Positions 1,424-42,815 of a stretch of DNA of 64,000 nucleotides are shown here, piece after piece. The position numbers and the translations under genes are program-made. The stretch lies in assembly GCF_050320075.1 (NCBI RefSeq), contig NZ_CP190018.1; one strand, given 5' to 3'. How positions within the stretch are numbered: the first letter of the stretch is position 1; every line of letters starts with the position of its first letter. The notes beneath the pieces were generated by a model, which saw only the letters and a list, made by a program, of their open reading frames with translations, was not told the DNA's origin and ran no database searches. This DNA is from Escherichia coli (GTDB lineage Bacteria; Pseudomonadota; Gammaproteobacteria; Enterobacterales; Enterobacteriaceae).

Positions 1424-1444
1424 AATATGCTGTGGACGTATGAC

Positions 1445-4585: not shown

Positions 4586-4799
4586 ACTTTAGCCTTTAGG
4601 ATGTGAGATGCTGGAGTAGTAAATCGCCGCGGAGCGGTTCGGGGTTCTGTGACACCCGAATTTTACCTCGGTTTCCTTTGTATATAATATCATTGAAGTT
4701 ATTTGCATTTCTCAGAAATCTTCTCTGGCTTTGATTGCTATAGCCGAAAGATAGCGCACACTTCGCCGTTGGTCAGTTAGTACGAGGTTTCCGCCAAGT

Positions 4800-7098: not shown

Positions 7099-7233
7099 AA
7101 TGTTTTCCTAAGCAATTCTCGCCTGATTATTAAGTACAGTCTAAAAATGCTTAAGTCAATGACCCTCTAATCTTCCTGAAATACGCCTCTTATACTTTAG
7201 TCTCTTTCTACTACGACCTGAGTTCAGGAGACT

Positions 7234-7545: not shown

Positions 7546-7553
7546 GGACCGAT

Positions 7554-8243: not shown

Positions 8244-8316
8244 TTAATTCATCGTTACTCACCTTACTTGGCCGGTTTAAGTCAGCCACGATCCGGCCTT
8301 TTTTCAGGAGCTGAAT

Positions 8317-9264: not shown

Positions 9265-9366
9265 AGCCCGTCCGGAACAGACTGTCATGAATGACACACA
9301 CGAACGGGCTGTTCCGGGTGATTCTAATCTGTATCACTTTTACTGCTTTGTATGAATGGTGAGAAT

Positions 9367-21329: not shown

Positions 21330-21731
21330 TTATTTGCTAACGAGTAGTCAACCACGCACCCTACGTAAAAATTAAAATGGGGCAGCCATTCCCTGCCCCG
21401 CGTTGTTTTTAGGCGATATATTTATTGAAATAAACAAGTGACATTCATCACATATTTATGCATTTGCATAACCTGTTGCATGATTATTTATGATTTCAAT
21501 TCGGAATTTTGTCAGTAAAATACAATAATTCATTAAATATCAATAGATTAGTTGTTTATCTGCGAGAAATTACTTAGTAGAATAGAAAGTAATGTCAACA
21601 GTTTATGGACTGTTATTTCTCTTTTTTTAGCTAAATCTGCTATCTCTTTATGTGACTAACTTCACTTACATTCACTTATTTCTCTTCGTAAAATTACTTT
21701 GGAATTAAGTACAATAAGAAGAGGAACATTT

Positions 21732-23414
21732 ATGAAGTCTGCATTAAAGAAAAGTGTCGTAAGTACCTCGATATCTTTGATACTGGCATCTGGTATGGCT
21801 GCATTTGCTGCTCATGCGGCAGATGATGTAAAGCTGAAAGCAACCAAAACAAACGTCGCTTTCTCAGACTTTACGCCGACTGAATACAGTACCAAAGGAA
21901 AGCCAAATATTATCGTACTGACCATGGATGATCTTGGTTATGGACAACTTCCTTTTGATAAGGGATCTTTTGACCCAAAAACAATGGAAAATCGTGAAGT
22001 TGTCGATACCTACAAAATAGGGATAGATAAAGCCATTGAAGCTGCACAAAAATCAACGCCGACGCTCCTTTCATTAATGGATGAAGGCGTACGTTTTACT
22101 AACGGCTATGTGGCGCACGGTGTTTCCGGCCCCTCCCGCGCCGCAATAATGACCGGTCGAGCGCCCGCCCGCTTTGGTGTCTATTCCAATACCGATGCTC
22201 AGGATGGTATTCCGCTAACAGAAACTTTCTTGCCTGAATTATTCCAGAATCATGGTTATTACACTGCAGCAGTAGGTAAATGGCACTTGTCAAAAATCAG
22301 TAATGTGCCAGTACCGGAAGATAAACAAACGCGTGACTATCATGACAACTTCACCACCTATTCTGCGGAAGAATGGCAACCTCAAAACCGTGGCTTTGAT
22401 TACTTTATGGGATTCCACGCTGCAGGAACGGCATATTACAACTCCCCTTCACTGTTCAAAAATCGTGAACGCGTCCCCGCAAAAGGTTATATCAGCGATC
22501 AGTTAACCGATGAGGCAATTGGCGTTGTTGATCGTGCCAAAACACTTGACCAGCCTTTTATGCTTTACCTGGCTTATAATGCTCCGCACCTGCCAAATGA
22601 TAATCCTGCACCGGAGCAATATCAGAAGCAATTTAATACCGGTAGTCAAACGGCAGATAACTACTACGCTTCCGTTTATTCTGTTGATCAGGGTGTAAAA
22701 CGCATTCTCGAACAACTGAAGAAAAACGGACAGTATGACAATACTATTATTCTCTTTACCTCCGATAATGGTGCGGTTATCGATGGTCCTCTGCCGCTGA
22801 ACGGGGCGCAAAAAGGCTATAAGAGTCAGACCTATCCTGGCGGTACTCACACCCCAATGTTTATGTGGTGGAAAGGAAAACTTCAACCCGGTAATTATGA
22901 CAAGCTGATTTCCGCAATGGATTTCTACCCGACAGCTCTTGATGCAGCCGATATCAGCATTCCAAAAGACCTTAAGCTGGATGGCGTTTCCTTGCTGCCC
23001 TGGTTGCAAGATAAGAAACAAGGCGAGCCACATAAAAATCTGACCTGGATAACCTCTTATTCTCACTGGTTTGATGAGGAAAATATTCCATTCTGGGATA
23101 ATTACCACAAATTTGTCCGTCATCAGTCAGACGATTACCCGCATAACCCCAACACCGAGGACTTAAGCCAATTCTCTTATACGGTGAGAAATAACGATTA
23201 TTCGCTAGTCTATACAGTAGAAAACAATCAGTTAGGTCTATACAAACTGACGGATCTACAGCAAAAAGATAACCTTGCCGCCGCCAATCCGCAGGTCGTT
23301 AAAGAGATGCAAGGCGTGGTAAGAGAGTTTATCGACAGCAGCCAACCACCGCTTAGCGAGGTAAATCAGGAGAAGTTTAACAATATCAAGAAAGCACTAA
23401 GCGAAGCGAAATAA
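21732..23414 (+). CDS. ydeN: Sulfatase (arylsulfatase family), exported
   Basis: Signal peptide; sulfatase signature around SGPSRAAIMTGR (Ser-type FGly motif). Confidence 0.85.
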   Translation: MKSALKKSVVSTSISLILASGMAAFAAHAADDVKLKATKTNVAFSDFTPTEYSTKGKPNIIVLTMDDLGYGQLPFDKGSFDPKTMENREVVDTYKIGIDKAIEAAQKSTPTLLSLMDEGVRFTNGYVAHGVSGPSRAAIMTGRAPARFGVYSNTDAQDGIPLTETFLPELFQNHGYYTAAVGKWHLSKISNVPVPEDKQTRDYHDNFTTYSAEEWQPQNRGFDYFMGFHAAGTAYYNSPSLFKNRERVPAKGYISDQLTDEAIGVVDRAKTLDQPFMLYLAYNAPHLPNDNPAPEQYQKQFNTGSQTADNYYASVYSVDQGVKRILEQLKKNGQYDNTIILFTSDNGAVIDGPLPLNGAQKGYKSQTYPGGTHTPMFMWWKGKLQPGNYDKLISAMDFYPTALDAADISIPKDLKLDGVSLLPWLQDKKQGEPHKNLTWITSYSHWFDEENIPFWDNYHKFVRHQSDDYPHNPNTEDLSQFSYTVRNNDYSLVYTVENNQLGLYKLTDLQQKDNLAAANPQVVKEMQGVVREFIDSSQPPLSEVNQEKFNNIKKALSEAK

Positions 23415-23465
23415 CTAAACCTTCATGCGGCGGATTTTTCCGCCGCCTTATTGAGCGAGATAGCG

Positions 23466-24623
23466 ATGCACGTTACAGCCAAGCCCTCCAGTTTTCAATG
23501 TAATCTCAAATGTGATTACTGTTTTTACCTTGAAAAAGAGTCGCAGTTTACTCATGAAAAATGGATGGATGACAGCACTCTGAAAGAGTTCATCAAACAA
23601 TATATCGCAGCGTCTGGCAATCAGGTCTATTTTACCTGGCAAGGCGGTGAACCCACTCTGGCTGGCCTGGATTTTTTCCGTAAAGTTATTCACTATCAAC
23701 AACGCTATGCAGGCCAAAAACGTATTTTTAATGCATTACAAACGAATGGCATTTTATTGAATAATGAATGGTGTGCCTTTCTCAAAGAACATGAGTTTCT
23801 GGTTGGTATCTCGATCGATGGACCCCAGGAGCTACATGACCGTTACAGACGCAGTAATTCTGGTAACGGTACTTTTGCAAAAGTGATAGCAGCCATCGAG
23901 CGTCTGAAATCATATCAAGTAGAGTTTAATACGTTAACCGTCATTAATAACGTTAATGTCCATTACCCTCTTGAGGTTTATCATTTTTTAAAATCTATCG
24001 GCAGTAAACATATGCAATTTATCGAATTGCTCGAAACCGGGACGCCGAATATTGATTTCAGTGGTCATAGTGAGAACACATTCCGTATCATTGATTTTTC
24101 TGTGCCTCCTACGGCTTATGGCAAGTTTATGTCGACCATTTTTATGCAATGGGTTAAAAACGATGTGGGTGAAATTTTCATCCGTCAGTTTGAAAGTTTT
24201 GTCAGCCGTTTTTTGGGGAATGGGCATACCAGTTGTATTTTCCAGGAGTCCTGCAAGGATAATCTGGTTGTTGAAAGTAATGGAGACATTTACGAATGCG
24301 ACCATTTTGTCTATCCACAGTACAAAATTGGAAACATTAATAAATCTGAACTTAAAACGATGAACAGTGTACAACTGACAGCGCAAAAAAAACGGATTTC
24401 AGCGAAATGTCAGCAATGTGCATATAAACCTATCTGCAATGGCGGTTGCCCTAAGCATCGTATTACTAAAGTAAACAATGAGACTGTTTCCTATTTTTGC
24501 GAAGGTTATAAAATCCTTTTTTCAACCATGGTACCTTATATGAACGCCATGGTGGAGTTAGCCAAGAACAGAGTACCGCTTTACCACATTATGGATGTTG
24601 CAAAACAAATGGAGAATAATTAA
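23466..24623 (+). CDS. ydeM: Radical-SAM anaerobic sulfatase-maturating enzyme homologue
   Basis: CNLKCDYC radical-SAM cysteine motif near N-terminus plus C-terminal Cys cluster; 385 aa from ATG at 23466. Confidence 0.8.
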
Positions 24624-24914
24624 TAACGCTCCTTCTTTGCTCCAGTCTTAGCCTCCGTCTTATGACCTTAACAAAGCACCCGACATAAATTCCTGTTGGG
24701 TGTTTCGTCATAATCATCTTCCCTTGCGAAAATTCTGGCTTACGTGGCATGCGTCAGGGCATTAGCAATACCCTTGATTATCAATAGCATAACCGTAACC
24801 ATTGAAAATAAAAAAATTTCTTTATATTTCAAAATGTTAAATGACACTTAAATAAATTTCATCAGTAAATCATTGCCATAGATAATCATTGGATGGCACA
24901 ATCAATTTTCGCTA

Positions 24915-26600
24915 ATGATAACCATTCCCATTACGTTTCGTATGTTGATAGCAAAGTATCTCTGTCTGCTGAAGCCCTTTTGGCTGCGTAAGAATAATAA
25001 AACTTCAGTGCTGTTAATCATTATTATCCTCGCCATGATCCTTGGCGTGGTTAAAATTCAGGTCTGGTTAAACGACTGGAATAATGATTTTTTCAATGCG
25101 CTAAGCCAGAAAGAAACCGATAAGCTTTGGCAGCTTGTCCTTTGGTTCCCTGCCCTGCTGGGGATCTTTGTATTAATATCCGTAAACAAAACATGGTTAA
25201 TTAAACTGCTGACTATTCGCTGGCGCGAATGGTTAACAGATTACTACCTTAATCGGTGGTTTGCAGATAAAAACTACTACTTCACGCAGATCTACGGCGA
25301 GCATAAAAATACAGATAACCCTGACCAACGTATCGCTGAAGACATTCTCTTACTGATCAGCAAAACGCTCAGTCTTTCATTTGGCTTCATCCAGTCACTT
25401 AGCATGCTGATCACCTTTACCGTTATTCTTTGGCAAAGCGCGGGTACGCTCTCATTCACTGTTGGTGGAACAGAATGGAATATCCAGGGGTATATGGTCT
25501 ATACCGTTGTGCTCATTGTGATCGGTGGAACTTTATTTACTCATAAGGTTGGTAAACGTATTCGTCCGCTTAATGTGGAAAAGCAACGTAGCGAAGCGAC
25601 ATTTCGAACTAATCTTGTGCAGCATAATAAGCAGGCTGAACTGATTGCGCTAAGCAATGCTGAGTCTCTACAACGCCAGGAGTTGAGCGACAATTTTCAT
25701 ACCATTAAAGAGAACTGGCATCGTTTAATGAATCGTCAGCGCTGGCTTGATTACTGGCAGAATATTTATTCGCGCTCGCTTAGCGTTCTTCCCTACTTTC
25801 TGTTATTGCCACAGTTTATTAGCGGACAGATCAATCTGGGCGGACTGATGAAATCGCGCCAGGCATTTATGCTGGTATCGAACAATTTAAGCTGGTTTAT
25901 TTATAAATATGACGAACTTGCTGAACTGGCTGCGGTTATCGATCGTTTGTATGAGTTCCATCAACTCACCGAACAGCGCCCTACGAATAAGCCTAAAAAT
26001 TGCCAACATGCGGTACAAGTGGCTGACGCGAGTATTCGTACTCCTGATAATAAGATCATATTAGAGAACCTGAACTTTCATGTTTCGCCAGGCAAATGGC
26101 TATTACTGAAAGGTTACTCTGGTGCGGGAAAAACCACACTGCTTAAAACATTATCCCACTGCTGGCCGTGGTTCAAAGGTGATATTTCTTCTCCTGCTGA
26201 CAGTTGGTATGTGTCACAAACACCGTTAATCAAAACCGGCTTACTGAAAGAGATTATTTGTAAAGCACTTCCCCTGCCCGTAGACGATAAATCGTTGAGC
26301 GAAATACTGCATCAGGTTGGTCTGGGGAAATTGGCTGCGCGTATTCATGACCACGATCGCTGGGGAGATATTCTTTCCAGCGGCGAAAAACAACGTATCG
26401 CCCTGGCACGATTAATTTTACGACGTCCGAAATGGATATTTCTTGACGAAACTACCTCTCATCTTGAGGAACAAGAGGCTATCCGCTTACTGCGTTTAGT
26501 GCGTGAAAAACTACCCACAAGCGGCGTCATTATGGTTACACATCAACCCGGTGTCTGGAACCTGGCTGATGATATTTGTGACATTAGCGCGGTTTTATAA
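24915..26600 (+). CDS. yddA: ABC transporter, fused permease/ATPase
   Basis: 561 aa; Walker A GYSGAGKTT and ABC signature LSSGEKQR. Confidence 0.85.
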   Translation: MITIPITFRMLIAKYLCLLKPFWLRKNNKTSVLLIIIILAMILGVVKIQVWLNDWNNDFFNALSQKETDKLWQLVLWFPALLGIFVLISVNKTWLIKLLTIRWREWLTDYYLNRWFADKNYYFTQIYGEHKNTDNPDQRIAEDILLLISKTLSLSFGFIQSLSMLITFTVILWQSAGTLSFTVGGTEWNIQGYMVYTVVLIVIGGTLFTHKVGKRIRPLNVEKQRSEATFRTNLVQHNKQAELIALSNAESLQRQELSDNFHTIKENWHRLMNRQRWLDYWQNIYSRSLSVLPYFLLLPQFISGQINLGGLMKSRQAFMLVSNNLSWFIYKYDELAELAAVIDRLYEFHQLTEQRPTNKPKNCQHAVQVADASIRTPDNKIILENLNFHVSPGKWLLLKGYSGAGKTTLLKTLSHCWPWFKGDISSPADSWYVSQTPLIKTGLLKEIICKALPLPVDDKSLSEILHQVGLGKLAARIHDHDRWGDILSSGEKQRIALARLILRRPKWIFLDETTSHLEEQEAIRLLRLVREKLPTSGVIMVTHQPGVWNLADDICDISAVL

Positions 26601-26637
26601 AAACAATAAAAGCCCTGCTGTACGGAGATAAAAATAA

Positions 26638-29010
26638 ATGAAGCGAGTTCTTATTCCTGGCGTCATTTTATGTGGCGCTGATGTGGCGCAGGCCGTCGAT
26701 GACAAAAACATGTACATGCATGTTTTTGAAGAGATGACGGTCTATGCTCCTGTCCCTGTACCCGTAAACGGCAACACGCATTACACCAGTGAAAGCATCG
26801 AGCGTTTACCGACCGGGAATGGCAATATCAGCGATCTGCTGAGAACCAACCCTGCGGTACGCATGGATTCAACGCAAAGTACCTCATTGAACCAGGGAGA
26901 TATTCGCCCTGAGAAAATCTCTATTCACGGTGCGTCGCCCTACCAGAATGCCTATTTGATTGACGGTATTAGTGCAACTAATAACCTGAACCCAGCGAAT
27001 GAGTCCGATGCCAGTAGTGCAACCAATATTAGCGGGATGTCACAGGGGTATTATCTTGATGTCAGCTTACTGGACAATGTGACGCTTTATGACAGTTTTG
27101 TGCCGGTTGAATTTGGTCGCTTCAATGGCGGGGTAATTGATGCAAAGATCAAACGCTTCAACGCTGATGATAGCAGCGTGAAACTGGGTTACCGCACTAC
27201 GCGTTCGGACTGGTTAACATCGCATATCGATGAGAATAACAAGAGCGCATTTAATCAAGGCTCTTCAGGAAGTACTTATTACTCCCCAGATTTTAAAAAG
27301 AACTTTTATACTTTGTTATTTAATCAGGAACTCGCTGATAACTTCGGCGTTACCGCCGGTTTATCGCGCCGCCAGTCTGATATCACCCGCGCGGATTATG
27401 TTTCGAATGACGGCATTGTCGCCGGTCGGGCACAGTATAAAAACGTTATCGATACCGCAGTGAGCAAATTTACCTGGTTTGCCAGTGACCGCTTTACCCA
27501 CGATTTAACCTTAAAATATACCGGCTCCAGCCGTGATTATAATACCAGCACCTTCCCGGAGTCTGATCGCGAAATGGGTAATAAATCCTATGGTCTGGCA
27601 TGGGATATGGATACGCAGCTCGCATGGGCCAAACTGCGTACTACCGTTGGTTGGGATCATATTAGTGATTATACCCGTCACGATCATGACATATGGTACA
27701 CCGAACTTTCATGTACATATGGTGATATTTCAGGGCGTTGCACCCGTGGCGGATTAGGACACATTTCCCAGGCTGTAGATAATTACACCTTCAAAACACG
27801 CCTGGACTGGCAAAAATACGCCGTGGGTAATGTTTCGCATCAACCCTACTTCGGCGCGGAATACATCTATTCCGATGCATGGACTGAACGCCATAACCAG
27901 TCTGAATCCTATGTGATTAATGCTGCAGGAAAGAAAACTAACCATACCATTTACCATAAAGGTAAAGGCAGTCTGGGAATTGACAACTACACGCTGTATA
28001 TGGCGGATCGCATTAGCTGGCGGAATGTGTCGTTAATGCCCGGTGTGCGATATGACTATGACAACTATCTGTCAAACCACAATATCTCCCCGCGATTTAT
28101 GACGGAATGGGATATTTTTGCTGATCAAACCTCAATGATTACTGCCGGTTATAACCGTTACTATGGCGGGAATATTCTTGATATGGGATTACGTGATATC
28201 CGCAATAGCTGGACGGAATCGGTATCAGGCAATAAAACCCTGACGCGTTATCAGGATTTGAAAACACCTTATAACGATGAACTGGCAATGGGGTTGCAGC
28301 AGAAAATCGGAAAGAACGTTATTGCGCGTGCAAACTATGTTTATCGTGAAGCGCATGATCAAATCAGTAAAAGCAGTCGTACCGACAGCGCGACTAAAAC
28401 CACCATTACTGAATATAACAACGACGGCAAAACCAAAACGCATTCGTTCAACCTCAGTTTTGAACTGGCCGAACCCCTGCATATCAGCCAGGTAGATATT
28501 AACCCGCAAATTGTCTTTAGCTATATCAAGAGCAAGGGCAACTTGTCGTTAAACAATGGTTATGAGGAGAGCAATACCGGTGATAACCGGGTGGTATATA
28601 ACGGTAATCTGGTCTCTTACGATAGCGTTCCAGTGGCGGATTTTAATAATCCACTAAAGATCTCCTTAAACATGGATTTCACGCATCAACCGAGCGGGTT
28701 GGTGTGGGCGAATACGTTGACCTGGCAAGAAGCGCGTAAAGCTCGCATTATCCTGGGTAAGACGAATGCGCAATACATCAGCGAATATTCAGATTACAAG
28801 CAGTATGTTGACGAGAGACTGGATAGCAGCCTGACCTGGGACACCCGCTTGTCCTGGACGCCACAATTTCTGAAACAACAAAACCTGACGATCAGTGCCG
28901 ATATTCTCAATGTACTGGATAGCAAAACCGCTGTTGATACAACGAATACCGGCGTGGCGACCTACGCCAGTGGCCGTACTTTCTGGCTTGATGTCAGCAT
29001 GAAATTTTAA
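26638..29010 (+). CDS. yddB: TonB-dependent-receptor-like outer membrane protein
   Basis: 790 aa, signal peptide, plug/barrel-like composition, terminal aromatic residue. Confidence 0.8.
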   Translation: MKRVLIPGVILCGADVAQAVDDKNMYMHVFEEMTVYAPVPVPVNGNTHYTSESIERLPTGNGNISDLLRTNPAVRMDSTQSTSLNQGDIRPEKISIHGASPYQNAYLIDGISATNNLNPANESDASSATNISGMSQGYYLDVSLLDNVTLYDSFVPVEFGRFNGGVIDAKIKRFNADDSSVKLGYRTTRSDWLTSHIDENNKSAFNQGSSGSTYYSPDFKKNFYTLLFNQELADNFGVTAGLSRRQSDITRADYVSNDGIVAGRAQYKNVIDTAVSKFTWFASDRFTHDLTLKYTGSSRDYNTSTFPESDREMGNKSYGLAWDMDTQLAWAKLRTTVGWDHISDYTRHDHDIWYTELSCTYGDISGRCTRGGLGHISQAVDNYTFKTRLDWQKYAVGNVSHQPYFGAEYIYSDAWTERHNQSESYVINAAGKKTNHTIYHKGKGSLGIDNYTLYMADRISWRNVSLMPGVRYDYDNYLSNHNISPRFMTEWDIFADQTSMITAGYNRYYGGNILDMGLRDIRNSWTESVSGNKTLTRYQDLKTPYNDELAMGLQQKIGKNVIARANYVYREAHDQISKSSRTDSATKTTITEYNNDGKTKTHSFNLSFELAEPLHISQVDINPQIVFSYIKSKGNLSLNNGYEESNTGDNRVVYNGNLVSYDSVPVADFNNPLKISLNMDFTHQPSGLVWANTLTWQEARKARIILGKTNAQYISEYSDYKQYVDERLDSSLTWDTRLSWTPQFLKQQNLTISADILNVLDSKTAVDTTNTGVATYASGRTFWLDVSMKF

Positions 29011-29054
29011 TAGTTCGGATTTTACTTTACCGGGTAAATTCGCCCGGTTTTCGC

Positions 29055-31850
29055 ATGGAGATAATTATGAGAAACCTCTGTTTCTTACTGACGTTAGTGG
29101 CAACTCTGTTGCTCCCCGGGCGACTGATTGCCGCCGCCTTACCGCAGGATGAAAAGTTAATTACCGGGCAACTGGACAATGGCTTGCGATATATGATTTA
29201 TCCGCATGCTCAACCAAAGGATCAGGTAAATTTATGGCTGCAAATTCATACCGGTTCATTGCAGGAAGAAGACAATGAGCGCGGCGTGGCTCATTTTGTA
29301 GAACATATGATGTTTAACGGCACAAAAACATGGCCGGGTAATAAAGTCATCGAAACATTTGAGTCAATGGGCCTGCGCTTTGGTCGCGATGTTAATGCCT
29401 ATACCAGCTATGACGAAACGGTGTATCAGGTAAGTTTGCCGACTACGCAGAAACAAAATCTGCAACAAGTGATGGCAATCTTCAGTGAATGGAGTAATGC
29501 CGCAACCTTTGAAAAACTCGAAGTAGACGCTGAACGCGGCGTAATTACTGAGGAATGGCGTGCCCATCAGGATGCGAAATGGCGCACCTCTCAGGCGCGC
29601 CGCCCTTTCCTGCAGGCTAATACCCGTAATTTAGACCGTGAACCTATCGGCCTGATGGATACTGTCGCTACGGTCACACCGGCACAATTGCGCCAATTTT
29701 ATCAACGCTGGTATCAACCAAATAATATGACCTTTATCGTGGTCGGCGATATTGACAGTAAAGAAGCGCTGGCGCTGATTAAGGATAATTTAAGTAAGCT
29801 TCCGGCTAACAAAGCAGCTGAAAATCGCGTCTGGCCGACAAAAGCCGAAAACCACCTGCGCTTTAATATCATTAATGATAAAGAAAACCGGGTGAACGGC
29901 ATCGCACTCTATTATCGCCTGCCAATGGTGCAAGTGAGCGATGAGCAAAGCTTTATCGAACAAGCTGAATGGAGCATGTTGGTTCAGCTGTTCAATCAGC
30001 GTCTGCAGGAACGCATACAGTCGGGCGAGTTGAAGACTATTTCTGGCGGCACTGCGCGCAGCGTTAGAATTGCACCCGATTATCAGTCGCTGTTTTTCCG
30101 TGTAAATGCACGAGACGATAATATGCAGGATGCTGCGAATGCATTAATGGCAGAGTTGGCAACTATTGATCAGCATGGTTTTTCTGCTGAAGAACTCGAT
30201 GATGTCAAATCTACCCGTCTCACCTGGCTGAAAAATGCGGTTGATCAGCAAGCTGAACGTGATTTACGTATGCTGACCAGTCGCCTGGCATCCAGCTCAT
30301 TAAATAATACGCCGTTCTTGTCGCCGGAAGAGACATATCAACTTTCGAAACGTCTGTGGCAGCAAATTACCGTGCAAAGTCTGGCGGAAAAATGGCAGCA
30401 GTTAAGAAAGAACCAGGATGCATTTTGGGAGCAAATGGTAAACAATGAGGTTGCTGCCAAAAAAGCATTGTCTCCTGCGGCTATCCTGGCGCTGGAAAAA
30501 GAGTACGCCAACAAAAAGCTGGCGGCTTACATCTTCCCAGGCAGAAATTTATCGTTAACAGTAGACGCTGACCCACAGGCGGAAATTAGCAGCAAAGAAA
30601 CGCTGGCTGAGAATCTGACATCATTAACACTTTCCAATGGTGCCAGGGTTATTCTGGCAAAATCTGCGGGTGAAGAGCAAAAGCTACAAATTACTGCCGT
30701 ATCTAATAAAGGCGATTTAAGTTTCCCTGCGCAGCAAAAATCACTTATCGCGCTGGCAAATAAAGCAGTAAGCGGAAGCGGCGTTGGTGAACTCTCCTCT
30801 TCCAGCCTGAAACGCTGGAGTGCGGAAAACTCGGTAACCATGAGCAGTAAAGTCAGTGGCATGAATACATTGCTCTCTGTTAGCGCGCGGGCTAATAACC
30901 CTGAACCTGGTTTCCAGTTGATTAACCAGCGAATCACCCACAGCACGATTAACGATAATATTTGGGCATCGCTACAAAATGCTCAAATTCAGGCGTTGAA
31001 AACGCTCGACCAGCGTCCAGCGGAGAAATTCGCCCAGCAGATGTATGAGACGCGCTATGCTGATGACCGCACGAAATTACTGCAAGAAAATCAGATTGCA
31101 CAGTTTACTGCCGCAGATGCGCTGGCTGCCGATCGCCAGTTGTTTTCATCTCCAGCGGATATCACGTTTGTCATTGTCGGTAATGTCGCAGAAGACAAAC
31201 TCGTGGCGTTAATTACGCGTTACTTAGGATCAATCAAACACTCTGATTCGCCATTAGCCGCAGGTAAACCATTAACTCGCGCGACGGACAACGCATCGGT
31301 TACTGTAAAAGAACAAAATGAACCTTTGGCACAGGTTTCACAGTGGAAGCGTTATGATTCCCGGACACCTGTAAATCTGGAGACGCGTATGGCGCTCGAT
31401 GCTTTTAACGTCGCACTGGCAAAAGATCTACGCGTTAATATTCGTGAACAGGCCTCTGGGGCATACAGCGTTTCTTCTCGCCTCTCGGTTGATCCTCAGG
31501 CCAAAGATATCAGTCATTTGCTGGCTTTTACTTGTCAACCGGAACGACATGATGAACTGTTAACGTTAGCGAATGAAGTGATGGTTAAGCGTCTGGCTAA
31601 AGGGATCAGTGAGCAAGAACTGAACGAATACCAGCAAAACGTTCAGCGCAGCCTCGATATCCAACAGCGTAGCGTTCAACAATTAGCGAACACCATTGTA
31701 AATAGTCTTATTCAATATGACGATCCTGCAGCATGGACTGAGCAGGAGCAATTGTTGAAACAAATGACGGTAGAGAATGTTAACACTGCCGTTAAACAAT
31801 ATCTTTCTCATCCGGTGAATACCTATACCGGAGTATTGTTGCCAAAATAA
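29055..31850 (+). CDS. pqqL: Periplasmic M16-family zinc metallopeptidase
   Basis: 931 aa; inverted zinc-binding motif HFVEH. Confidence 0.9.
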   Translation: MEIIMRNLCFLLTLVATLLLPGRLIAAALPQDEKLITGQLDNGLRYMIYPHAQPKDQVNLWLQIHTGSLQEEDNERGVAHFVEHMMFNGTKTWPGNKVIETFESMGLRFGRDVNAYTSYDETVYQVSLPTTQKQNLQQVMAIFSEWSNAATFEKLEVDAERGVITEEWRAHQDAKWRTSQARRPFLQANTRNLDREPIGLMDTVATVTPAQLRQFYQRWYQPNNMTFIVVGDIDSKEALALIKDNLSKLPANKAAENRVWPTKAENHLRFNIINDKENRVNGIALYYRLPMVQVSDEQSFIEQAEWSMLVQLFNQRLQERIQSGELKTISGGTARSVRIAPDYQSLFFRVNARDDNMQDAANALMAELATIDQHGFSAEELDDVKSTRLTWLKNAVDQQAERDLRMLTSRLASSSLNNTPFLSPEETYQLSKRLWQQITVQSLAEKWQQLRKNQDAFWEQMVNNEVAAKKALSPAAILALEKEYANKKLAAYIFPGRNLSLTVDADPQAEISSKETLAENLTSLTLSNGARVILAKSAGEEQKLQITAVSNKGDLSFPAQQKSLIALANKAVSGSGVGELSSSSLKRWSAENSVTMSSKVSGMNTLLSVSARANNPEPGFQLINQRITHSTINDNIWASLQNAQIQALKTLDQRPAEKFAQQMYETRYADDRTKLLQENQIAQFTAADALAADRQLFSSPADITFVIVGNVAEDKLVALITRYLGSIKHSDSPLAAGKPLTRATDNASVTVKEQNEPLAQVSQWKRYDSRTPVNLETRMALDAFNVALAKDLRVNIREQASGAYSVSSRLSVDPQAKDISHLLAFTCQPERHDELLTLANEVMVKRLAKGISEQELNEYQQNVQRSLDIQQRSVQQLANTIVNSLIQYDDPAAWTEQEQLLKQMTVENVNTAVKQYLSHPVNTYTGVLLPK

Positions 31851-32112
31851 TAACAGCCCCGTCAACACCTCGTTGGCGGGGATTTTAGCAATATTCGCTA
31901 TTTTTATGTAATAATTTTATAAATGCGTTCAAAATAATAACCAAGTACTAATAGTGATATTTTAAGGTCTGATTTTTACGTGATAATTCAGGAGGCGTAG
32001 AAAGCGCATAAAAATAACAACATAAAACACTTTACCACCACCAAAAAATTCTCTATTGCATTGTTTTTTAATGAAAAAACATTATTCTCGTAATATTTCA
32101 CGATAAATAACA

Positions 32113-32132
32113 TTAGGATTTTGTTATTTAAA
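32113..32132 (+). promoter_or_regulatory. GAD box (GadE binding site) TTAGGATTTTGTTATTTAAA upstream of gadB
   Basis: Exact 20-bp match to the GAD-box consensus as recalled, about 80 bp upstream of the gadB start. Confidence 0.75.
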
Positions 32133-32211
32133 CCCGAGTCCTTTGCACTTGCTTACTTTATCGATAAATCCTACTTTTTTAATGCGATCCAATCATTTTA
32201 AGGAGTTTAAA

Positions 32212-33612
32212 ATGGATAAGAAGCAAGTAACGGATTTAAGGTCGGAACTACTCGATTCACGTTTTGGTGCGAAGTCTATTTCCACTATCGCAGAATCAAA
32301 ACGATTTCCGCTGCACGAAATGCGCGATGATGTCGCATTCCAGATTATCAATGACGAATTATATCTTGATGGCAACGCTCGTCAGAACCTGGCCACTTTC
32401 TGCCAGACCTGGGACGACGAAAATGTCCATAAGTTGATGGATTTATCCATTAACAAAAACTGGATCGACAAAGAAGAATATCCGCAATCCGCTGCAATCG
32501 ACCTGCGTTGCGTAAACATGGTTGCCGATCTGTGGCATGCGCCTGCGCCGAAAAATGGTCAGGCCGTTGGCACCAACACCATTGGTTCTTCCGAGGCCTG
32601 TATGCTCGGCGGGATGGCGATGAAATGGCGTTGGCGCAAGCGTATGGAAGCTGCAGGCAAACCAACGGATAAACCAAACCTGGTGTGCGGTCCGGTGCAA
32701 ATCTGCTGGCATAAATTCGCCCGCTACTGGGATGTGGAGCTGCGTGAGATCCCTATGCGCCCCGGTCAGTTGTTTATGGACCCGAAACGCATGATTGAAG
32801 CCTGCGACGAAAACACCATCGGCGTGGTGCCGACTTTCGGCGTGACCTACACCGGTAACTATGAGTTCCCGCAGCCGCTGCACGATGCGCTGGATAAATT
32901 CCAGGCCGACACCGGTATCGACATCGACATGCACATCGACGCCGCCAGCGGTGGCTTCCTGGCACCGTTCGTCGCCCCGGATATCGTCTGGGACTTCCGC
33001 CTGCCGCGTGTGAAATCGATCAGTGCTTCAGGCCATAAATTCGGTCTGGCTCCGCTGGGCTGCGGCTGGGTTATCTGGCGTGATGAAGAAGCGCTGCCGC
33101 AGGAACTGGTGTTCAACGTTGACTACCTCGGTGGTCAGATTGGGACTTTCGCCATCAACTTCTCCCGCCCGGCGGGTCAGGTAATTGCACAGTACTATGA
33201 ATTCCTGCGCCTCGGTCGTGAAGGCTATACCAAAGTACAGAACGCCTCTTACCAGGTTGCCGCTTATCTGGCGGATGAAATCGCCAAACTGGGGCCGTAT
33301 GAGTTCATCTGTACCGGTCGCCCGGACGAAGGCATCCCGGCGGTTTGCTTCAAACTGAAAGAGGGTGAAGATCCGGGATACACCCTCTACGACCTCTCTG
33401 AACGTCTGCGTCTGCGCGGCTGGCAGGTTCCGGCCTTCACTCTCGGCGGTGAAGCCACCGACATCGTGGTGATGCGCATTATGTGTCGTCGCGGCTTCGA
33501 AATGGACTTTGCTGAACTGTTGCTGGAAGACTACAAAGCCTCCCTGAAATATCTCAGCGACCACCCGAAACTGCAGGGTATTGCCCAGCAGAACAGCTTT
33601 AAACATACCTGA
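32212..33612 (+). CDS. gadB: Glutamate decarboxylase beta
   Basis: 466-aa product starting [18 protein letters not shown]; PLP-lysine motif SGHKFGLAP. Confidence 0.95.
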
Positions 33613-33767
33613 TAACGTTTAACGGTAACGGTGTCCCGAAACACACCCGTTTCGGGACAATTTCCAAAGTCTGTTCACTGGCATTAGCAACGGAAAATAT
33701 TGTTCTGAATACGTTTCAGAACAAAACAGGTGCGGTTCCGACAGGAATACCGTTTTAGGGGGATAAT

Positions 33768-35303
33768 ATGGCTACATCAGTACAGACAGGTAAAGCTAAG
33801 CAGCTCACATTACTCGGATTTTTTGCCATAACGGCATCGATGGTAATGGCTGTTTATGAATACCCTACCTTCGCAACATCGGGCTTTTCATTAGTCTTCT
33901 TCCTGCTATTAGGCGGGATTTTATGGTTTATTCCCGTGGGACTTTGTGCTGCGGAAATGGCTACCGTCGACGGCTGGGAAGAAGGTGGTGTCTTCGCCTG
34001 GGTATCAAATACTCTGGGGCCGAGATGGGGATTTGCAGCGATCTCATTTGGCTATCTGCAAATCGCCATTGGTTTTATTCCGATGCTCTATTTCGTGTTA
34101 GGGGCACTCTCCTACATCCTGAAATGGCCAGCGCTGAATGAAGACCCCATTACCAAAACTATTGCAGCACTCATCATTCTTTGGGCGCTGGCATTAACGC
34201 AGTTTGGTGGCACGAAATACACGGCGCGAATTGCTAAAGTTGGCTTCTTCGCCGGTATCCTGTTACCTGCATTTATTTTGATCGCATTAGCGGCTATTTA
34301 TCTGCACTCCGGTGCCCCCGTTGCTATCGAAATGGATTCGAAGACCTTCTTCCCTGACTTCTCTAAAGTGGGCACCCTGGTTGTATTTGTTGCCTTCATT
34401 TTGAGTTATATGGGGGTAGAAGCATCTGCAACCCACGTCAATGAAATGAGCAACCCAGGGCGCGACTATCCGTTGGCTATGTTATTGCTGATGGTGGCGG
34501 CAATCTGCTTAAGCTCTGTTGGCGGTTTGTCTATTGCGATGGTCATTCCGGGTAATGAAATCAACCTCTCCGCAGGGGTAATGCAAACCTTTACCGTTCT
34601 GATGTCCCATGTGGCACCGGAAATTGAGTGGACGGTTCGCGTGATCTCCGCACTGCTGTTGCTGGGTGTTCTGGCGGAAATCGCTTCCTGGATTGTTGGT
34701 CCTTCTCGCGGGATGTATGTCACAGCGCAGAAAAACCTGCTGCCAGCAGCATTCGCTAAAATGAACAAAAATGGCGTACCGGTAACGCTGGTCATTTCGC
34801 AGCTGGTGATTACTTCTATCGCGTTGATCATCCTCACCAATACCGGTGGCGGTAACAACATGTCCTTCCTGATCGCACTGGCGCTGACGGTGGTGATTTA
34901 TCTGTGTGCTTATTTCATGCTGTTTATTGGCTACATTGTGTTGGTTCTTAAACATCCTGACTTAAAACGCACATTTAATATCCCTGGTGGTAAAGGGGTG
35001 AAACTGGTCGTGGCTGTTGTCGGTCTGCTGACTTCAATTATGGCGTTTATTGTTTCCTTCCTGCCGCCGGATAACATCCAGGGTGACTCTACCGATATGT
35101 ATGTTGAATTACTGGTCGTGAGTTTCCTGGTGGTACTTGCCCTGCCCTTTATTCTCTATGCTGTTCATGATCGTAAAGGCAAAGGGAATACCGGCGTCAC
35201 TCTGGAGCCAATCAACAGTCAGAACGCACCAAAAGGTCACTTCTTCCTGCACCCGCGTGCACGTTCACCACACTATATTGTGATGAATGACAAGAAACAC
35301 TAA
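33768..35303 (+). CDS. gadC: Glutamate:GABA antiporter
   Basis: 511 aa, APC-family polytopic membrane protein immediately downstream of gadB. Confidence 0.95.
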
Positions 35304-35433
35304 CCATGTCTGAATGGTTATAAGATAAGGGAGCGATAATTCATCGCTCCCTTTTTCGTGCTTGCTGTCGTATTGACTTAACCGGGATAAGTACGAGAAT
35401 GAGCGCACATCTGTTTACCGGAAACCAGCACAT

Positions 35434-36753
35434 ATGGATATCTGCTCCCGAAACGAGAAATTAGCGATTAGAAGACCAGCGATACTGGTTGCACTGGCAC
35501 TTTTACTGTGTAGTTGTAAAAGCACGCCTCCAGAGTCCATGGTGACACCACCAGCGGGTTCAAAGCCACCAGCCACGACGCAACAATCGTCACAACCGAT
35601 GCGTGGCATCTGGCTGGCTACGGTGTCTCGCCTCGACTGGCCACCGGTTTCCTCGGTTAACATTAGTAACCCCACCAGCCGGGCCCGTGTACAACAACAG
35701 GCGATGATCGACAAACTGGATCATCTGCAACGTCTCGGCATAAACACGGTCTTTTTCCAGGTCAAGCCGGACGGTACCGCCCTGTGGCCATCAAAAATTT
35801 TGCCGTGGTCCGATCTTATGACCGGAAAGATTGGTGAAAATCCAGGTTACGATCCGCTGCAATTTATGCTCGACGAAGCCCACAAGCGTGGGATGAAAGT
35901 ACACGCCTGGTTTAACCCCTATCGCGTATCGGTTAATACGAAGCCCGGTACTATCAGGGAACTGAATAGCACTCTGTCTCAACAACCAGCGAGCGTCTAT
36001 GTGCAACACCGCGACTGGATCAGAACGTCCGGCGATCGCTTTGTCCTCGACCCGGGCATCCCTGAAGTTCAGGACTGGATCACATCAATAGTCGCGGAAG
36101 TGGTTTCCCGCTATCCGGTAGATGGCGTGCAGTTTGACGACTATTTCTATACTGAGTCACCAGCTTCACGGCTAAATGATAACGAAACGTACCGCAAATA
36201 CGGAGGCGCATTTGCGTCAAAAGCAGACTGGCGGCGCAACAATACTCAGCAGTTAATTGCGAAGGTATCGCACACCATTAAAAGCATTAAGCCGGAAGTC
36301 GAATTTGGCGTTAGCCCGGCAGGCGTGTGGCGTAACCGATCACACGATCCGCTCGGTTCCGATACCCGAGGCGCGGCAGCCTATGACGAATCCTACGCTG
36401 ACACCCGTCGATGGGTGGAACAAGGATTGCTGGATTACATTGCTCCCCAAATTTACTGGCCGTTCTCACGGAGTGCCGCACGTTATGACGTTTTGGCAAA
36501 ATGGTGGGCAGATGTCGTTAAACCGACCAGGACCCGCCTGTATATCGGTATCGCCTTCTATAAAGTGGGTGAACCTTCAAAGATAGAGCCAGACTGGATG
36601 ATTAACGGCGGCGTACCGGAACTGAAAAAACAGCTCGATCTTAACGATGCCGTGCCAGAAATTAGCGGCACAATCTTGTTCCGTGAGGACTATCTGAATA
36701 AACCGCAGACTCAACAAGCGGTTAGCTATCTGCAAAGTCGTTGGGGCAGTTAA
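35434..36753 (+). CDS. yddW: Lipoprotein, glycoside-hydrolase-like
   Basis: 439 aa; lipobox LLCSC near N-terminus; synteny with gadC. Confidence 0.8.
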   Translation: MDICSRNEKLAIRRPAILVALALLLCSCKSTPPESMVTPPAGSKPPATTQQSSQPMRGIWLATVSRLDWPPVSSVNISNPTSRARVQQQAMIDKLDHLQRLGINTVFFQVKPDGTALWPSKILPWSDLMTGKIGENPGYDPLQFMLDEAHKRGMKVHAWFNPYRVSVNTKPGTIRELNSTLSQQPASVYVQHRDWIRTSGDRFVLDPGIPEVQDWITSIVAEVVSRYPVDGVQFDDYFYTESPASRLNDNETYRKYGGAFASKADWRRNNTQQLIAKVSHTIKSIKPEVEFGVSPAGVWRNRSHDPLGSDTRGAAAYDESYADTRRWVEQGLLDYIAPQIYWPFSRSAARYDVLAKWWADVVKPTRTRLYIGIAFYKVGEPSKIEPDWMINGGVPELKKQLDLNDAVPEISGTILFREDYLNKPQTQQAVSYLQSRWGS

Positions 36754-37129
36754 ACTCCCATTCATACTTTGTGACAAGCCGGTGGTTTACCCACCGGCTT
36801 GCTACCCTCTTGAAATATCCCACTAGTAATCATGCTTACTTAAGTCAAATTAACTACGCAATTAACCACACTTAGTTAAACAGTCATAAATCCCCTAATA
36901 AAAATGTATGAACATGAAAAAACATACGATATTCGCTGTCACCGAAAAATAATTACGATGGGCTATACTCTTCTGAAGAACAGTAGCGTAGATTGAAACT
37001 GTCCTAAGTCGCTTATTTCTTTTCAGTATATCTTCATATTTCAGGAGAATATGGTGCAGTTAGTCGATCTCGCACGTTGCGTTTCGTTTTGATTCCGTCT
37101 GCTTTCCCAGCCTTATAAGGGTGTGAATT

Positions 37130-37467
37130 ATGGAGATGTATTTTAAAAGAATGAAAGATGAGTGGACCGGGCTTGTCGAACAAGCAGATCCGCTCATTCG
37201 TGCTAAAGCCGCGGAAATTGCCGTTGCGCATGCCCATTATCTGAGTATTGAGTTTTACCGAATTGTCCGTATCGACCCGCATGCCGAAGAATTCTTGAGT
37301 AATGAACAAGTTGAGCGGCAGTTGAAAAGTGCGATGGAACGCTGGATTATTAACGTGCTTTCTGCCCAGGTGGACGATGTCGAAAGGCTAATACAAATCC
37401 AGCATACCGTTGCGGAAGTGCATGCCCGCATAGGAATTCCGGTAGAAATTGTCGAGATGGGGTTTCG
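37130..37467 (+). pseudogene. dosC: dosC (diguanylate cyclase DosC/YddV) N-terminal globin-domain fragment truncated by IS1
   Basis: Product starts MEMYFKRMKDEWTGLVEQ and runs into the IS1 end at 37468 after about 113 codons. Confidence 0.8.
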
Positions 37468-38235
37468 GGTGATGCTGCCAACTTACTGATTTAGTGTATG
37501 ATGGTGTTTTTGAGGTGCTCCAGTGGCTTCTGTTTCTATCAGCTGTCCCTCCTGTTCAGCTACTGACGGGGTGGTGCGTAACGGCAAAAGCACCGCCGGA
37601 CATCAGCGCTATCTCTGCTCTCACTGCCGTAAAACATGGCAACTGCAGTTCACTTACACCGCTTCTCAACCCGGTACGCACCAGAAAATCATTGATATGG
37701 CCATGAATGGCGTTGGATGCCGGGCAACCGCCCGCATTATGGGCGTTGGCCTCAACACGATTTTCCGCCATTTAAAAAACTCAGGCCGCAGTCGGTAACC
37801 TCGCGCATACAGCCGGGCAGTGACGTCATCGTCTGCGCGGAAATGGACGAACAGTGGGGATACGTCGGGGCTAAATCGCGCCAGCGCTGGCTGTTTTACG
37901 CGTATGACAGGCTCCGGAAGACGGTTGTTGCGCACGTATTCGGTGAACGCACTCTGGCCACACTGGAGCGTCTTCTAAGCCTGCTGTCGGCCTTTGAGGT
38001 CGTGGTATGGATGACGGATGGCTGGCCGCTGTATGAATCCCGCCTGAAGGGAAAGCTGCACGTAATCAGCAAGCGTTACACTCAGCGAATTGAGCGGCAT
38101 AACCTGAATCTGAGACAACATCTGGCAAGGCTGGGACGGAAGTCACTGTCGTTCTCAAAATCGGTGGAGCTGCATGACAAGGTCATCGGGCATTATCTGA
38201 ACATAAAACACTATCAGTAAGTTGGAGTCATTACC
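37468..38235 (+). mobile_element. insAB: IS1 copy 2 (768 bp), insA 37523..37798 and insB 37717..38220 on plus strand
   Basis: Both terminal repeats read directly; A6C frameshift motif TTTAAAAAAC at about 37773; InsA/InsB identical to copy 1; no target duplication. Confidence 0.95.
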
Positions 38236-38430
38236 GAAAATTCAACAGCAGAACCCGCTCTGGTTAATGCCATTGAGCAAGGCCTTCGGGCAGAGCACGG
38301 TGTTGTCACTGAAGATGACATTCTCATGGAGCTGACCAAATGGGTGGAAGCTTCTGATAACGACATCCTCAGTGATATCTACCAGCAAACGATCAATTAT
38401 GTGGTCAGTGGCCAGCACCCTACGCTTTAA
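38236..38430 (+). pseudogene. bdm: bdm (biofilm-dependent modulation protein) C-terminal fragment
   Basis: Frame reading ...ENSTAEPALVNAIEQGLRAEHGVV...QHPTL-stop begins right at the IS1 boundary; N-terminus absent. Confidence 0.7.
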
Positions 38431-38531
38431 GGTGCTATGCTTGATCGGCAACCTAATTTAGGGGTTTAGCACGTGTTTCTTCGCTACGGCGATGTTGTCC
38501 TTAAAACTAGCAACAGGATTGAGGAGTTAAA

Positions 38532-38669
38532 ATGAAATCGAACCGTCAGGCACGTCATATTCTTGGACTGGACCATAAAATTTCTAACCAGCGCAAAATA
38601 GTTACCGAAGGTGACAAATCCAGCGTGGTAAATAACCCAACCGGCAGAAAACGCCCCGCTGAAAAGTAA
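38532..38669 (+). CDS. sra: Stationary-phase ribosome-associated protein Sra (45 aa)
   Basis: ATG at 38532 preceded by GAGGAG; translation [45 protein letters not shown]; below the ORF-track length cutoff. Confidence 0.85.
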
Positions 38670-38825
38670 TTCATAACCATCAGTCCTCAATGACGATTAA
38701 ACACCATTGCCTGCGCAATGGTGTTTTTGTTTTTATCTGCTTTATACTTGGGGCCGACGCCCTGGCGGTAAAGCAAAGACGATAAAAGCGTGCCAGGGTT
38801 GGATATTCAAAAAAGAGTGAGTGAC

Positions 38826-40523
38826 ATGGAACCAAAAACAAAAAAACAGCGTTCGCTTTATATTCCTTACGCTGGCCCTGTACTGCTGGAATTTCCGTTG
38901 TTGAATAAAGGCAGTGCCTTCAGCATGGAAGAACGCCGTAACTTCAACCTGCTGGGGTTACTGCCGGAAGTGGTCGAAACCATCGAAGAGCAAGCGGAAC
39001 GAGCATGGATCCAGTATCAGGGATTCAAAACCGAAATCGACAAACACATCTACCTGCGTAACATCCAGGACACTAACGAAACCCTCTTCTACCGTCTGGT
39101 AAACAATCATCTTGATGAGATGATGCCTGTTATTTATACCCCAACCGTTGGCGCAGCCTGTGAGCGTTTTTCTGAGATCTACCGCCGTTCACGCGGCGTG
39201 TTTATCTCTTACCAGAACCGCCACAATATGGACGATATTCTGCAAAACGTGCCGAACCATAATATTAAAGTGATTGTGGTGACTGACGGCGAACGTATTC
39301 TGGGGCTTGGTGACCAGGGCATCGGCGGGATGGGCATTCCGATCGGTAAACTGTCGCTCTATACCGCTTGTGGCGGCATCAGCCCAGCGTATACCCTTCC
39401 GGTGGTGCTGGATGTCGGGACGAATAACCAACAGCTGCTTAACGATCCGCTGTATATGGGCTGGCGTAATCCGCGTATCACTGACGACGAATACTATGAA
39501 TTCGTTGATGAATTTATCCAGGCTGTGAAACAACGCTGGCCGGACGTACTGTTGCAGTTTGAAGACTTCGCACAAAAAAATGCGATGCCGTTACTTAACC
39601 GCTATCGCAATGAAATTTGTTCTTTTAACGATGACATTCAGGGCACCGCGGCGGTAACGGTCGGCACACTGATCGCAGCCAGCCGCGCGGCAGGTGGTCA
39701 GTTAAGCGAGAAAAAAATCGTCTTCCTTGGCGCAGGTTCAGCGGGATGCGGCATTGCCGAAATGATCATTGCCCAGACTCAGCGCGAAGGATTAAGCGAG
39801 GAAACGGCGCGGCAGAAAGTCTTTATGGTCGATCGCTTTGGCCTGCTGACCGACAAGATGCCGAACCTGCTGCCTTTCCAGACCAAACTGGTGCAGAAAC
39901 GCGAAAACCTCAGTGACTGGGATACCGACAGCGATGTGCTGTCACTGCTGGATGTGGTGCGTAATGTAAAACCAGATATTCTGATTGGCGTCTCAGGACA
40001 GACCGGGCTGTTTACGGAAGAGATCATCCGTGAGATGCATAAACACTGTCCGCGTCCGATCGTGATGCCGTTGTCTAACCCGACTTCACGCGTGGAAGCC
40101 ACACCGCAGGACATTATCGCCTGGACTGAAGGTAACGCGCTGGTCGCCACTGGCAGTCCGTTTAACCCAGTGGTATGGAAAGATAAAATCTACCCTATCG
40201 CCCAGTGTAACAACGCCTTTATTTTCCCGGGCATCGGGCTGGGCGTTATTGCTTCCGGCGCGTCACGTATCACCGATGAGATGCTGATGTCGGCAAGTGA
40301 AACGCTTGCTCAGTATTCGCCACTGGTGCTGAACGGCGAAGGTCTGGTACTGCCGGAACTGAAAGATATTCAGAAAGTCTCCCGCGCAATTGCCTTTGCG
40401 GTTGGCAAAATGGCGCAGCAGCAAGGCGTGGCGGTGAAAACCTCCGCCGAAGCTCTGCAACAGGCCATTGATGATAATTTCTGGCAAGCCGAATACCGCG
40501 ACTACCGCCGTACCTCCATCTAA
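38826..40523 (+). CDS. maeA: NAD-dependent malic enzyme
   Basis: 565 aa from [17 protein letters not shown]; malic-enzyme motifs. Confidence 0.95.
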
Positions 40524-42100: not shown

Positions 42101-42815
42101 AAATGCGCCTGTAAGGCTCTGTTACCAGCCGCGCCCTAACAGGCGCATACGATCTGACATTTGCATTCAACTTCGTTACTTACGGCCCGTAAACGGGCTG
42201 CCCGGATATGGAATCGATAACTGCTCCCCCATTTTATCCTCTTCAAGCTGGTGCTTTATGTAGTCCTGTATCTTCGCCGTGTTCTTACCCACCGTATCGA
42301 CATAGTACCCTCGGCACCAGAACTCCCTGTTTCTGTATTTGAATTTCAAATCCCCAAACTGCTCGTAAAGCATCAGACTGCTTTTCCCTTTCAGATATCC
42401 CATAAAGCCGGATACGCTCATTTTGGGTGGGATTTCCACAAGCATATGGATATGATCTGCGCAGCACTCTGCTTCCAGAATCCGTACGCTTTTCCACTCA
42501 CACAGCTTTCTCAAAATACTGCCTATCGCCCTACGCTTCTCTCCGTAAAACGCCAGTCTTCGGTATTTCGGCGCAAAAACTATGTGATATTTACAGTTCC
42601 AGCGGGTGTGCGCTAAGCTCTTTTCGTCCCCCATTGGGACCCCCTTTTGATTTCTTGTTTGACACTTGCAGTTGCCAGACCGCAAGGTGTTTTAACAAAT
42701 CAAAAGGGGTTTTAATAACTGGCTCAAAGCTGAAAGCTTTCCGGAACCCCCAGCCTAGCTGGGGGTTTTCTGTGCACAAAAAAAATGGCGCTTCTTAAAG
42801 CGCCATTTTCAGCTT
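42100..42815 (-). mobile_element. tnpA: IS200-like element (IS200/IS605 family) with Y1 transposase tnpA 42176..42634
   Basis: TnpA starting MGDEKSLAHTRWNCKYHIVFAPKYRR with HIHMLVEIPPK (HUH) motif; element boundaries approximate, set by the flanking terminators. Confidence 0.8.

Follow-up and report, generated by a model that had tools for sequence, protein, structure and literature searches.

One of the three IS1 copies in the window analysed here (the whole stretch of DNA, 64 kb) joins the 5' part of dosC directly to the 3' part of bdm, and the DNA that lies between these two points in close relatives is missing. We found that the window equals the complete E. coli genome YZLc1-3 minus 10,551 bp, and that YZLc1-3 carries the same IS1 as a simple insertion in bdm. 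We consider it likely that a single transposase-mediated intramolecular IS1 event removed the dosC-bdm interval, leaving the element itself in place.

Anatomy of the junction and extent of the loss

The features at the junction are as follows.

37130..37467, + strand: 5' remnant of dosC (dgcO), codons 1-113, with a partial globin sensor domain and without the middle and GGDEF domains
37130..37489, + strand: chimeric ORF of 119 aa (ORF list), DosC residues 1-113 plus VMLPTY and a stop encoded by the left end of IS1
37468..37490, + strand: IRL, GGTGATGCTGCCAACTTACTGAT; the dosC junction at 37467/37468 is the deletion point
37523..37798, + strand: insA, 91 aa (ORF list)
37717..38220, + strand: insB' reading frame, ORF of 167 aa (ORF list)
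37774..37780, + strand: A6C slippery motif for the -1 frameshift that gives the InsAB' transposase; the fused 232-aa frame is open
38213..38235, - strand: IRR; the bdm junction at 38235/38236 is the same as in the simple insertion of YZLc1-3
38236..38243, + strand: GAAAATTC, the right-hand and only remaining copy of the 8-bp target duplication, from the comparison with YZLc1-3
38236..38430, + strand: 3' remnant of bdm, codons 8-71 and the stop, without native start codon or promoter
38532..38669: sra, downstream of the bdm remnant and followed by maeA

An end-motif search and reading of the sequence over 36600..39000 placed the element at 37468..38235. It is an intact, 768-bp IS1 on the + strand with IRL on the left and IRR on the right, and the end motif matched six times in a pattern search of the 64-kb window against zero matches expected. 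The ends conform to the imperfect terminal inverted repeats of about 23 bp, GGTGATGCTGCCAACTTACTGAT and GGTAATGACTCCAACTTA(C/T)TGAT, and insA and insB' are joined via the A6C frameshift. A protein identical to the InsAB' product matches the Pfam families Zn_ribbon_InsA, HTH_Tnp_IS1 and DDE_Tnp_IS1, and the identical IS1 copy in YZLc1-3 carries the annotation 'programmed frameshift'. Copy A of the window (15484..16251) and the IS1 in bdm of YZLc1-3 are both 100% identical to the element.

On the left, the dosC ATG lies at 37130 and the final base that belongs to dosC only is 37467, so that dosC is cut after nucleotide 338. Codon 113 (CGG) is finished by the first G of IS1, and the frame continues for six IS1 codons before the stop. 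Because dosC continues GGTG and IS1 begins GGTG, the dosC breakpoint is ambiguous by 4 bp. K-12 DosC aligned to the window by tblastn over residues 1-115 only (98.3%), and K-12 Bdm over residues 8-71 (64 of 71 residues, 98.4%). A product identical to the 119-aa chimera has a weak Pfam match to Protoglobin; an NCBIfam search with the 119-aa product gave no match.

IS1 makes target duplications of 8 or 9 bp on simple insertion (PMC12428005). No such duplication flanks the dosC/bdm IS1: ...GGGGTTTCG precedes the element and GAAAATTCA... follows it, and these are not a direct repeat. An internal control is provided by IS1 copy C in yddG, where the usual 8-bp duplication (CGTTTATC) is present. The initial annotation, made from the sequence, had described an IS1 without target duplication that joins the dosC N-terminus to the bdm C-terminus, with dosC ending after about 113 codons and about 65 codons of bdm remaining. 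Each of these statements holds, as the cut falls in codon 113 and codons 8-71 plus the stop of bdm remain.

We then aligned both flanks to K-12, a check proposed in the initial annotation together with an estimate of roughly 11 kb between the two points. Each flank corresponds to one unique K-12 position, and the gap between them is NC_000913.3 1556260..1566802, or 10,543 bp. Absent relative to K-12 are dosC codons 114-460, dosP, ddpXABCDF, osmC, the bdm promoter region and bdm codons 1-7. Neither blastn nor tblastn found a trace of dosP, ddpX-F or osmC elsewhere within the 64-kb window. The predicted loss of dosCP, the ddp operon and osmC is thus correct for the 64-kb window, which is the scope over which it is established.

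The decisive comparison is with YZLc1-3, a complete E. coli genome from chicken faeces in Yangzhou (NZ_CP123240.1; RefSeq GCF_025583585.2, a second version). We found no mention of this strain in the literature. Positions 1..37471 of the window aligned to it with 37,471 of 37,471 bases identical (100.000%). From the start of the dosC/bdm IS1 to position 64000 there were no mismatches and a single gap, an artefact that arose where the alignment ran slightly past the junction. The two genomes have IS1 at the same three positions, including those in the fimbrial usher gene and in yddG. The window thus appears to come from an E. coli clone essentially identical to YZLc1-3. The density of IS1 had raised the suspicion of a Shigella origin, which we rejected: the flanks are 100% identical to many E. 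coli, the window equals YZLc1-3, and S. flexneri 2457T has a different allele, in which dgcO is truncated and pdeO is listed as present.

YZLc1-3 keeps dosC, dosP, ddpXABCDF and osmC intact and has no IS1 in its dosC. In its bdm, IS1 forms a simple insertion flanked by a duplication of 8 bp (GAAAATTC), and the element stands between ...GGCAGAAAATTC on the left and GAAAATTCAACAGC... on the right. The IS1-bdm junction is identical in the window and YZLc1-3 over 200 of 200 bases, and among the 5,426 complete E. coli genomes searched this junction was found at 200/200 identity in YZLc1-3 alone. The missing 10,551 bp correspond to 2644518..2655068 of the YZLc1-3 record and run from dosC nucleotide 338 to the left end of IS1; they consist of the 10,543 bp equivalent to K-12 plus one 8-bp copy of the duplication, the left one. 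Other strains of the same sub-lineage, with flanks 100% identical and without the IS1, have exactly 10,543 bp between the two points. Together, the IS1-free relatives, YZLc1-3 and the window form a three-state series, from an intact locus through bdm::IS1 to an IS1-adjacent deletion. Apart from YZLc1-3, the 66-aa IS1-fused Bdm product was found only in one other contig and a draft contig common to six sibling samples.

Two accounts of the missing DNA that involve no true loss were considered. In the first, the genome really resembles YZLc1-3, and 10.5 kb were skipped during assembly. In its favour, no other difference separates the window from YZLc1-3, whose own RefSeq assembly is a second version. 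However, a collapse needs repeats at both ends, and the intact genome has no IS1 in dosC; real molecules must therefore exist in which dosC nucleotide 338 is joined to precisely the first base of IS1. The same kind of junction is also present in independent data sets (see below), and we regard an assembly artefact as very improbable. The window could represent either a sibling isolate or the same strain assembled a second time, and the deletion allele could then be a variant of a culture subpopulation.

The second account is relocation, in which the 10.5-kb segment was excised as a circle with an IS1 copy and re-integrated elsewhere in the genome. Replicative deletion does yield an IS1-bearing circle, for which each of the numerous IS1 copies would in principle be a possible partner in recombination. 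Against this, no trace of the segment lies within the 64-kb window, the dosC-bdm interval is single-copy in YZLc1-3, and matches to the interval are almost all chromosomal (5 of 5,664 places are on plasmids). Relocation therefore strikes us as the remotest of the explanations considered here.

The other IS1 copies and several further features of the window were recorded alongside the junction. Copy A (15484..16251, - strand) has no target duplication, with ...CTGGAACAC on its left and CAAAAATGA... on its right. It links a fimbrial usher (ydeT-like) that has lost its C-terminus to a fimbrial subunit that has lost its N-terminus, and 1,822 bp are missing there relative to the genome GD33 (the usher 3' end, ydeS and the ydeR 5' end). 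We read copy A as the probable scar of a second, older IS1-adjacent deletion, shared with YZLc1-3. Copy C (48157..48924, - strand), which interrupts yddG, is divergent, with 36 mismatches to copies A and B, the latter being the dosC/bdm element. A 450-aa SIR2-family protein is encoded at 3233..4585 (- strand), between hipBA and an ISNCY transposase remnant; it matches PDC-S25, a family of candidate anti-phage defence proteins in PADLOC (E 2e-82), and more weakly the SIR2 domains of ThsA/Dsr. The ISNCY remnant, at about 4800..5808 (- strand), is frameshifted, and an IS200/IS605 tnpA lies between yddM and fdnI at 42176..42634 (- strand); both were mapped from the YZLc1-3 annotation. Tandem leucine-rich-repeat proteins are encoded at 50833..52098 and 52161..53414 (+ strand), between an ompC-like porin gene and narU, and show only weak similarity to the leucine-rich-repeat region of the SlrP effector and to internalin J. 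Finally, fdnG (44374..47421, - strand) appears as two ORFs of 195 and 803 aa, a split that we take to be due to the in-frame TGA selenocysteine codon. It is annotated full length in YZLc1-3, and for this reason it is not a pseudogene.

IS1 at the dosC-bdm locus in other genomes

Neither the whole structure of the window nor the dosC-IS1 junction occurs in any of the 5,426 complete E. coli genomes. The first BLAST matches that suggested IS1 at dosC in complete genomes proved to be insertions upstream of dosC or elsewhere. Since the allele is absent from this set, it is probably recent.

A look-up of the 119-aa product returned only contigs of another lineage. These are human-gut metagenome contigs (L004-L008; ENA, JGI and Logan) in which IS1 is joined to the same dosC nucleotide through IRL, in the same orientation and with the same 119-aa ORF. 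They are equivalent to 33479..37592 of the window and are nearly identical to one another across the ENA, JGI and Logan samples. From the window they differ at 74-80 positions per 3.5-4.1 kb (about 2%), 10 of these within the 338-nt dosC remnant. Their flank matches another group of complete genomes (WCHEC020031, UK_Dog_Liverpool, AMA1167 and others), all with dosC intact. IS1 has thus struck dosC nucleotide 338 independently in this second lineage. No record was found of the 355-aa downstream form of DosC predicted for a simple insertion in the second lineage, and a 347-aa form occurs only in genomes without IS1 there. Scans of metagenome contigs for the IS1-bdm and dosC-IS1 junctions gave zero matches, a result to be read with the fact that the dosC-IS1 scan also missed the known JGI contigs L006 and L007.

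The bdm side has been reached more than once as well. In CUWW10 (L031 6333..7100), a variant IS1A forms the same junction with GAAAATTC of bdm; no duplication is present, and the osmC side has lost 301 bp. In GD33 (L030 6333..7100), an IS1B lies about 290 bp upstream of bdm with its other side in ydeQ; compared with YZLc1-3, this genome lacks about 30.8 kb between ydeQ and the osmC-bdm spacer, a stretch that contains gadBC, dosCP, ddp and osmC. About a dozen other genomes have the IS1-bdm spacing of GD33, as judged by spacing alone. The left junction of CUWW10 and the right junction of GD33 are 2 bp apart in K-12 coordinates, and for this reason the osmC-bdm spacer is suggested to be another preferred IS1 site. 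From these junctions, the dosC-bdm locus is a repeated target of IS1.

A further reading is that both breakpoints are preferred IS1 targets, and that the dosCP-ddp-osmC block is 'IS1-fragile' and recurrently, perhaps adaptively, lost in IS1-rich gut and poultry lineages. The preferred-target part of this reading draws on the same dosC-IRL junction in a second lineage, on the same bdm junction made by a different IS1 variant in CUWW10, and on the spacer site. In addition, dosC nucleotide 338 adjoins GGTGCTG-A7, which resembles the IS1 terminus GGTGATGCTG. We hold the reading as a whole to be speculative and doubtful. At least 80% of the interval is held by 4,209 of the 5,426 complete genomes, and about 22% hold less than 80%. 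There is also a common IS-free allele, digH-[72-aa GGDEF fragment of dosC]-dosP-osmC-bdm, which is without the ddp operon and without most of dosC (e.g., L011, L012 and L015).

Two other arrangements were seen at this locus. In GCA_012426605.1 (L043 2663..4044), dosC is split into ORFs of 114 and 347 aa that overlap at codons 113-115, and the split adjoins an A7 run (CTGAAAAAAATCC) directly after the IS1 target; a homopolymer frameshift is one possibility. NR319, NR363 and NR341, of about 5.17 Mb each and with matches at similar coordinates, have the order IS1-bdm-sra-maeA (NR319) or IS1-maeA (NR363 and NR341). The latter arrangement looks like another IS1-adjacent deletion, running the opposite way.

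The route of the deletion

The junction, the intact element, the near-isogenic earlier state and the exact extent of the loss are direct observations, and the following series of steps would account for them. In an ancestor, IS1 would have entered bdm at codons 7-10, duplicating 8 bp (GAAAATTC). Later, the transposase of the bdm IS1, or of a sister copy, would have joined IRL to a dosC target after nucleotide 338 by intramolecular transposition, a type of step known as 'replicative deletion' or 'abortive transposition'. Excision would then have removed the 10,551 bp that separate the left end of IS1 from the dosC target, and with them dosC codons 114-460, dosP, ddpXABCDF, osmC, the bdm promoter and first seven codons, and the left copy of the duplication. 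IS1 would have stayed in place with its right junction untouched. Intramolecular rearrangements by IS1 were reportedly described by Turlan and Chandler in 1995, a study cited by PMC12428005. According to this order, bdm would already have been inactivated by the IS1 insertion before the deletion, so that the bdm defect would not be caused by the deletion.

The features expected of an adjacent deletion are present. The endpoint falls exactly at the terminal base of a retained, intact IS1, the opposite junction is unchanged, and a progenitor with a simple insertion, a duplication and intact neighbouring DNA exists in YZLc1-3. We infer an IS1-adjacent deletion from the combination of the exact endpoint at the IS1 terminus, the preserved opposite junction, the intact element and the lost duplication, and with it the order of events and a single transposase-catalysed step. 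The initial annotation had proposed such a deletion from the missing direct repeat, and the simple insertion with its duplication and intact interval in YZLc1-3 bears this out. Such events have precedents. Deletions of 11-66 kb immediately at IS1 ends, with variable far ends, arise in clinical E. coli at 2-99 per million cells, and the authors ascribe them to abortive IS1 transposition (PMC10569738). Adjacent deletions have also been stated as a cause of missing target duplications (PMC11708052).

The same product could be reached in two steps. A second IS1 would insert in dosC after nucleotide 338 in the same orientation, and RecA-dependent recombination between the two IS1 copies would then delete the interval together with one IS1. 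Such a route gives the same sequence base for base, including loss of the matching duplications, so sequence alone cannot separate the two. A donor would be at hand in the identical copy A or copy B, and the gut-metagenome contigs of the unrelated lineage, with their shared dosC-IRL junction, demonstrate that IS1 ends do reach this dosC position. However, none of the 5,426 complete E. coli genomes has IS1 at this dosC position, nor does YZLc1-3, and no relative in that set has IS1 at both borders (dosC nucleotide 338 and bdm), bearing in mind that a transient intermediate would escape sampling. Moreover, the clone shows no point difference over 64 kb, yet the two-step route calls for a pair of rare events in it where one suffices. 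We therefore consider it unlikely, though it deserves to be kept in view beside the single intramolecular event.

Illegitimate recombination independent of IS1, by slippage or end-joining at the short identity TTCG/GGTG, would make the endpoint at the IS1 terminus a coincidence. The sequences do share bases at the join: dosC reads ...TTTCG/GGTGCTG and the progenitor junction ...AATTC/GGTGATG, giving 4 bp of identity at the join itself and TTCGG nearby. Yet four bases of identity at a distance of 10.5 kb are a very weak substrate, and the endpoint falls exactly on the transposase cleavage site. Moreover, IS1 ends recur at deletion borders, both at the dosC-bdm locus and elsewhere (PMC10569738), and in the window a 1.8-kb gap without a target duplication adjoins copy A as well. 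We consider this explanation highly improbable. Taken together, we favour removal of the interval by a single intramolecular IS1 event.

Predicted consequences and comparison with known systems

Only residues 1-113 of DosC are encoded in the window, and full-length relatives have the domain order Protoglobin, DosC_2nd and GGDEF. As the fragment is without the middle and GGDEF domains, it is not expected to make c-di-GMP, and DosP, the phosphodiesterase paired with it, is gone. Without ddpXABCDF, the D-Ala-D-Ala dipeptidase/permease of stationary phase would be missing, and without osmC a peroxiredoxin that acts on organic hydroperoxides. DosC/DosP have been linked to oxygen-dependent control of curli and PNAG (PMC5635171). 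From these established functions, we predict a strain that lacks the DosC/DosP pair, which couples oxygen sensing to c-di-GMP, the operon for the D-Ala-D-Ala dipeptidase/permease, and the peroxiredoxin OsmC. One transposon event would have removed ten genes' worth of function, affecting the control of c-di-GMP by oxygen, the scavenging of D-Ala-D-Ala and the defence against organic peroxides. When strains are typed or phenotypes predicted, dosCP, ddp and osmC should not be taken as present in this clone.

The type of event, the element and the dispensability of the genes were already known, and the window adds nothing new on IS1 or on the loss of DosC. What is particular to it is a private allele with an almost perfectly isogenic undeleted partner, which makes it a tidy example. 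The two genomes, with 64 kb identical and one 10.5-kb loss, form a clean natural before-and-after pair for an IS1-adjacent deletion.

Absence of a functional DosC is not unusual. A passage in Cimdins et al. 2017 (PMC5635171), citing Povolotsky & Hengge 2016, describes DosC/DgcO as frequently absent among E. coli isolates, and dgcO of S. flexneri 2457T is listed as 'truncating deletion, no GGDEF' (PMC11327459). The natural decay of DosC in E. coli and Shigella and the allele of the window have in common the loss of the GGDEF part. They differ in what else is lost: pdeO (dosP) is still listed as present in S. flexneri 2457T, and the common IS-free E. coli allele keeps dosP and osmC while lacking the ddp operon and most of dosC, whereas in the window dosP, ddp and osmC are gone together and an IS1 scar remains. 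CUWW10 and GD33 resemble the window in having an IS1 without duplication beside bdm; they differ in IS1 variant (IS1A and IS1B, respectively), in lineage and in extent, and GD33 also loses gadBC.

In mechanism, the closest known system is the set of nfsB-region deletions in clinical E. coli (Wan et al. 2023, PMC10569738). There, too, the deletions start at one IS1 terminus, the IS1 is intact, no duplication is present and the far end is arbitrary and inside a gene; the 10.5 kb of the window are comparable to the 11-66 kb reported. Nothing mechanistic differs. In contrast to that system, the window belongs to a natural isolate pair with no known selection, its deletion extends from the IRL end, and its far end coincides with a site also struck by IS1 in another lineage. 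The IS150 adjacent deletions of the Lenski lines (Ngan et al. 2024, PMC11708052) pass through the same two stages, an insertion with duplication and then a deletion that erases it, and in both cases the earlier state can be recovered from a near-identical genome. The Lenski deletions involve an element of the IS3 family in the laboratory, whereas the window involves IS1 in natural isolates.
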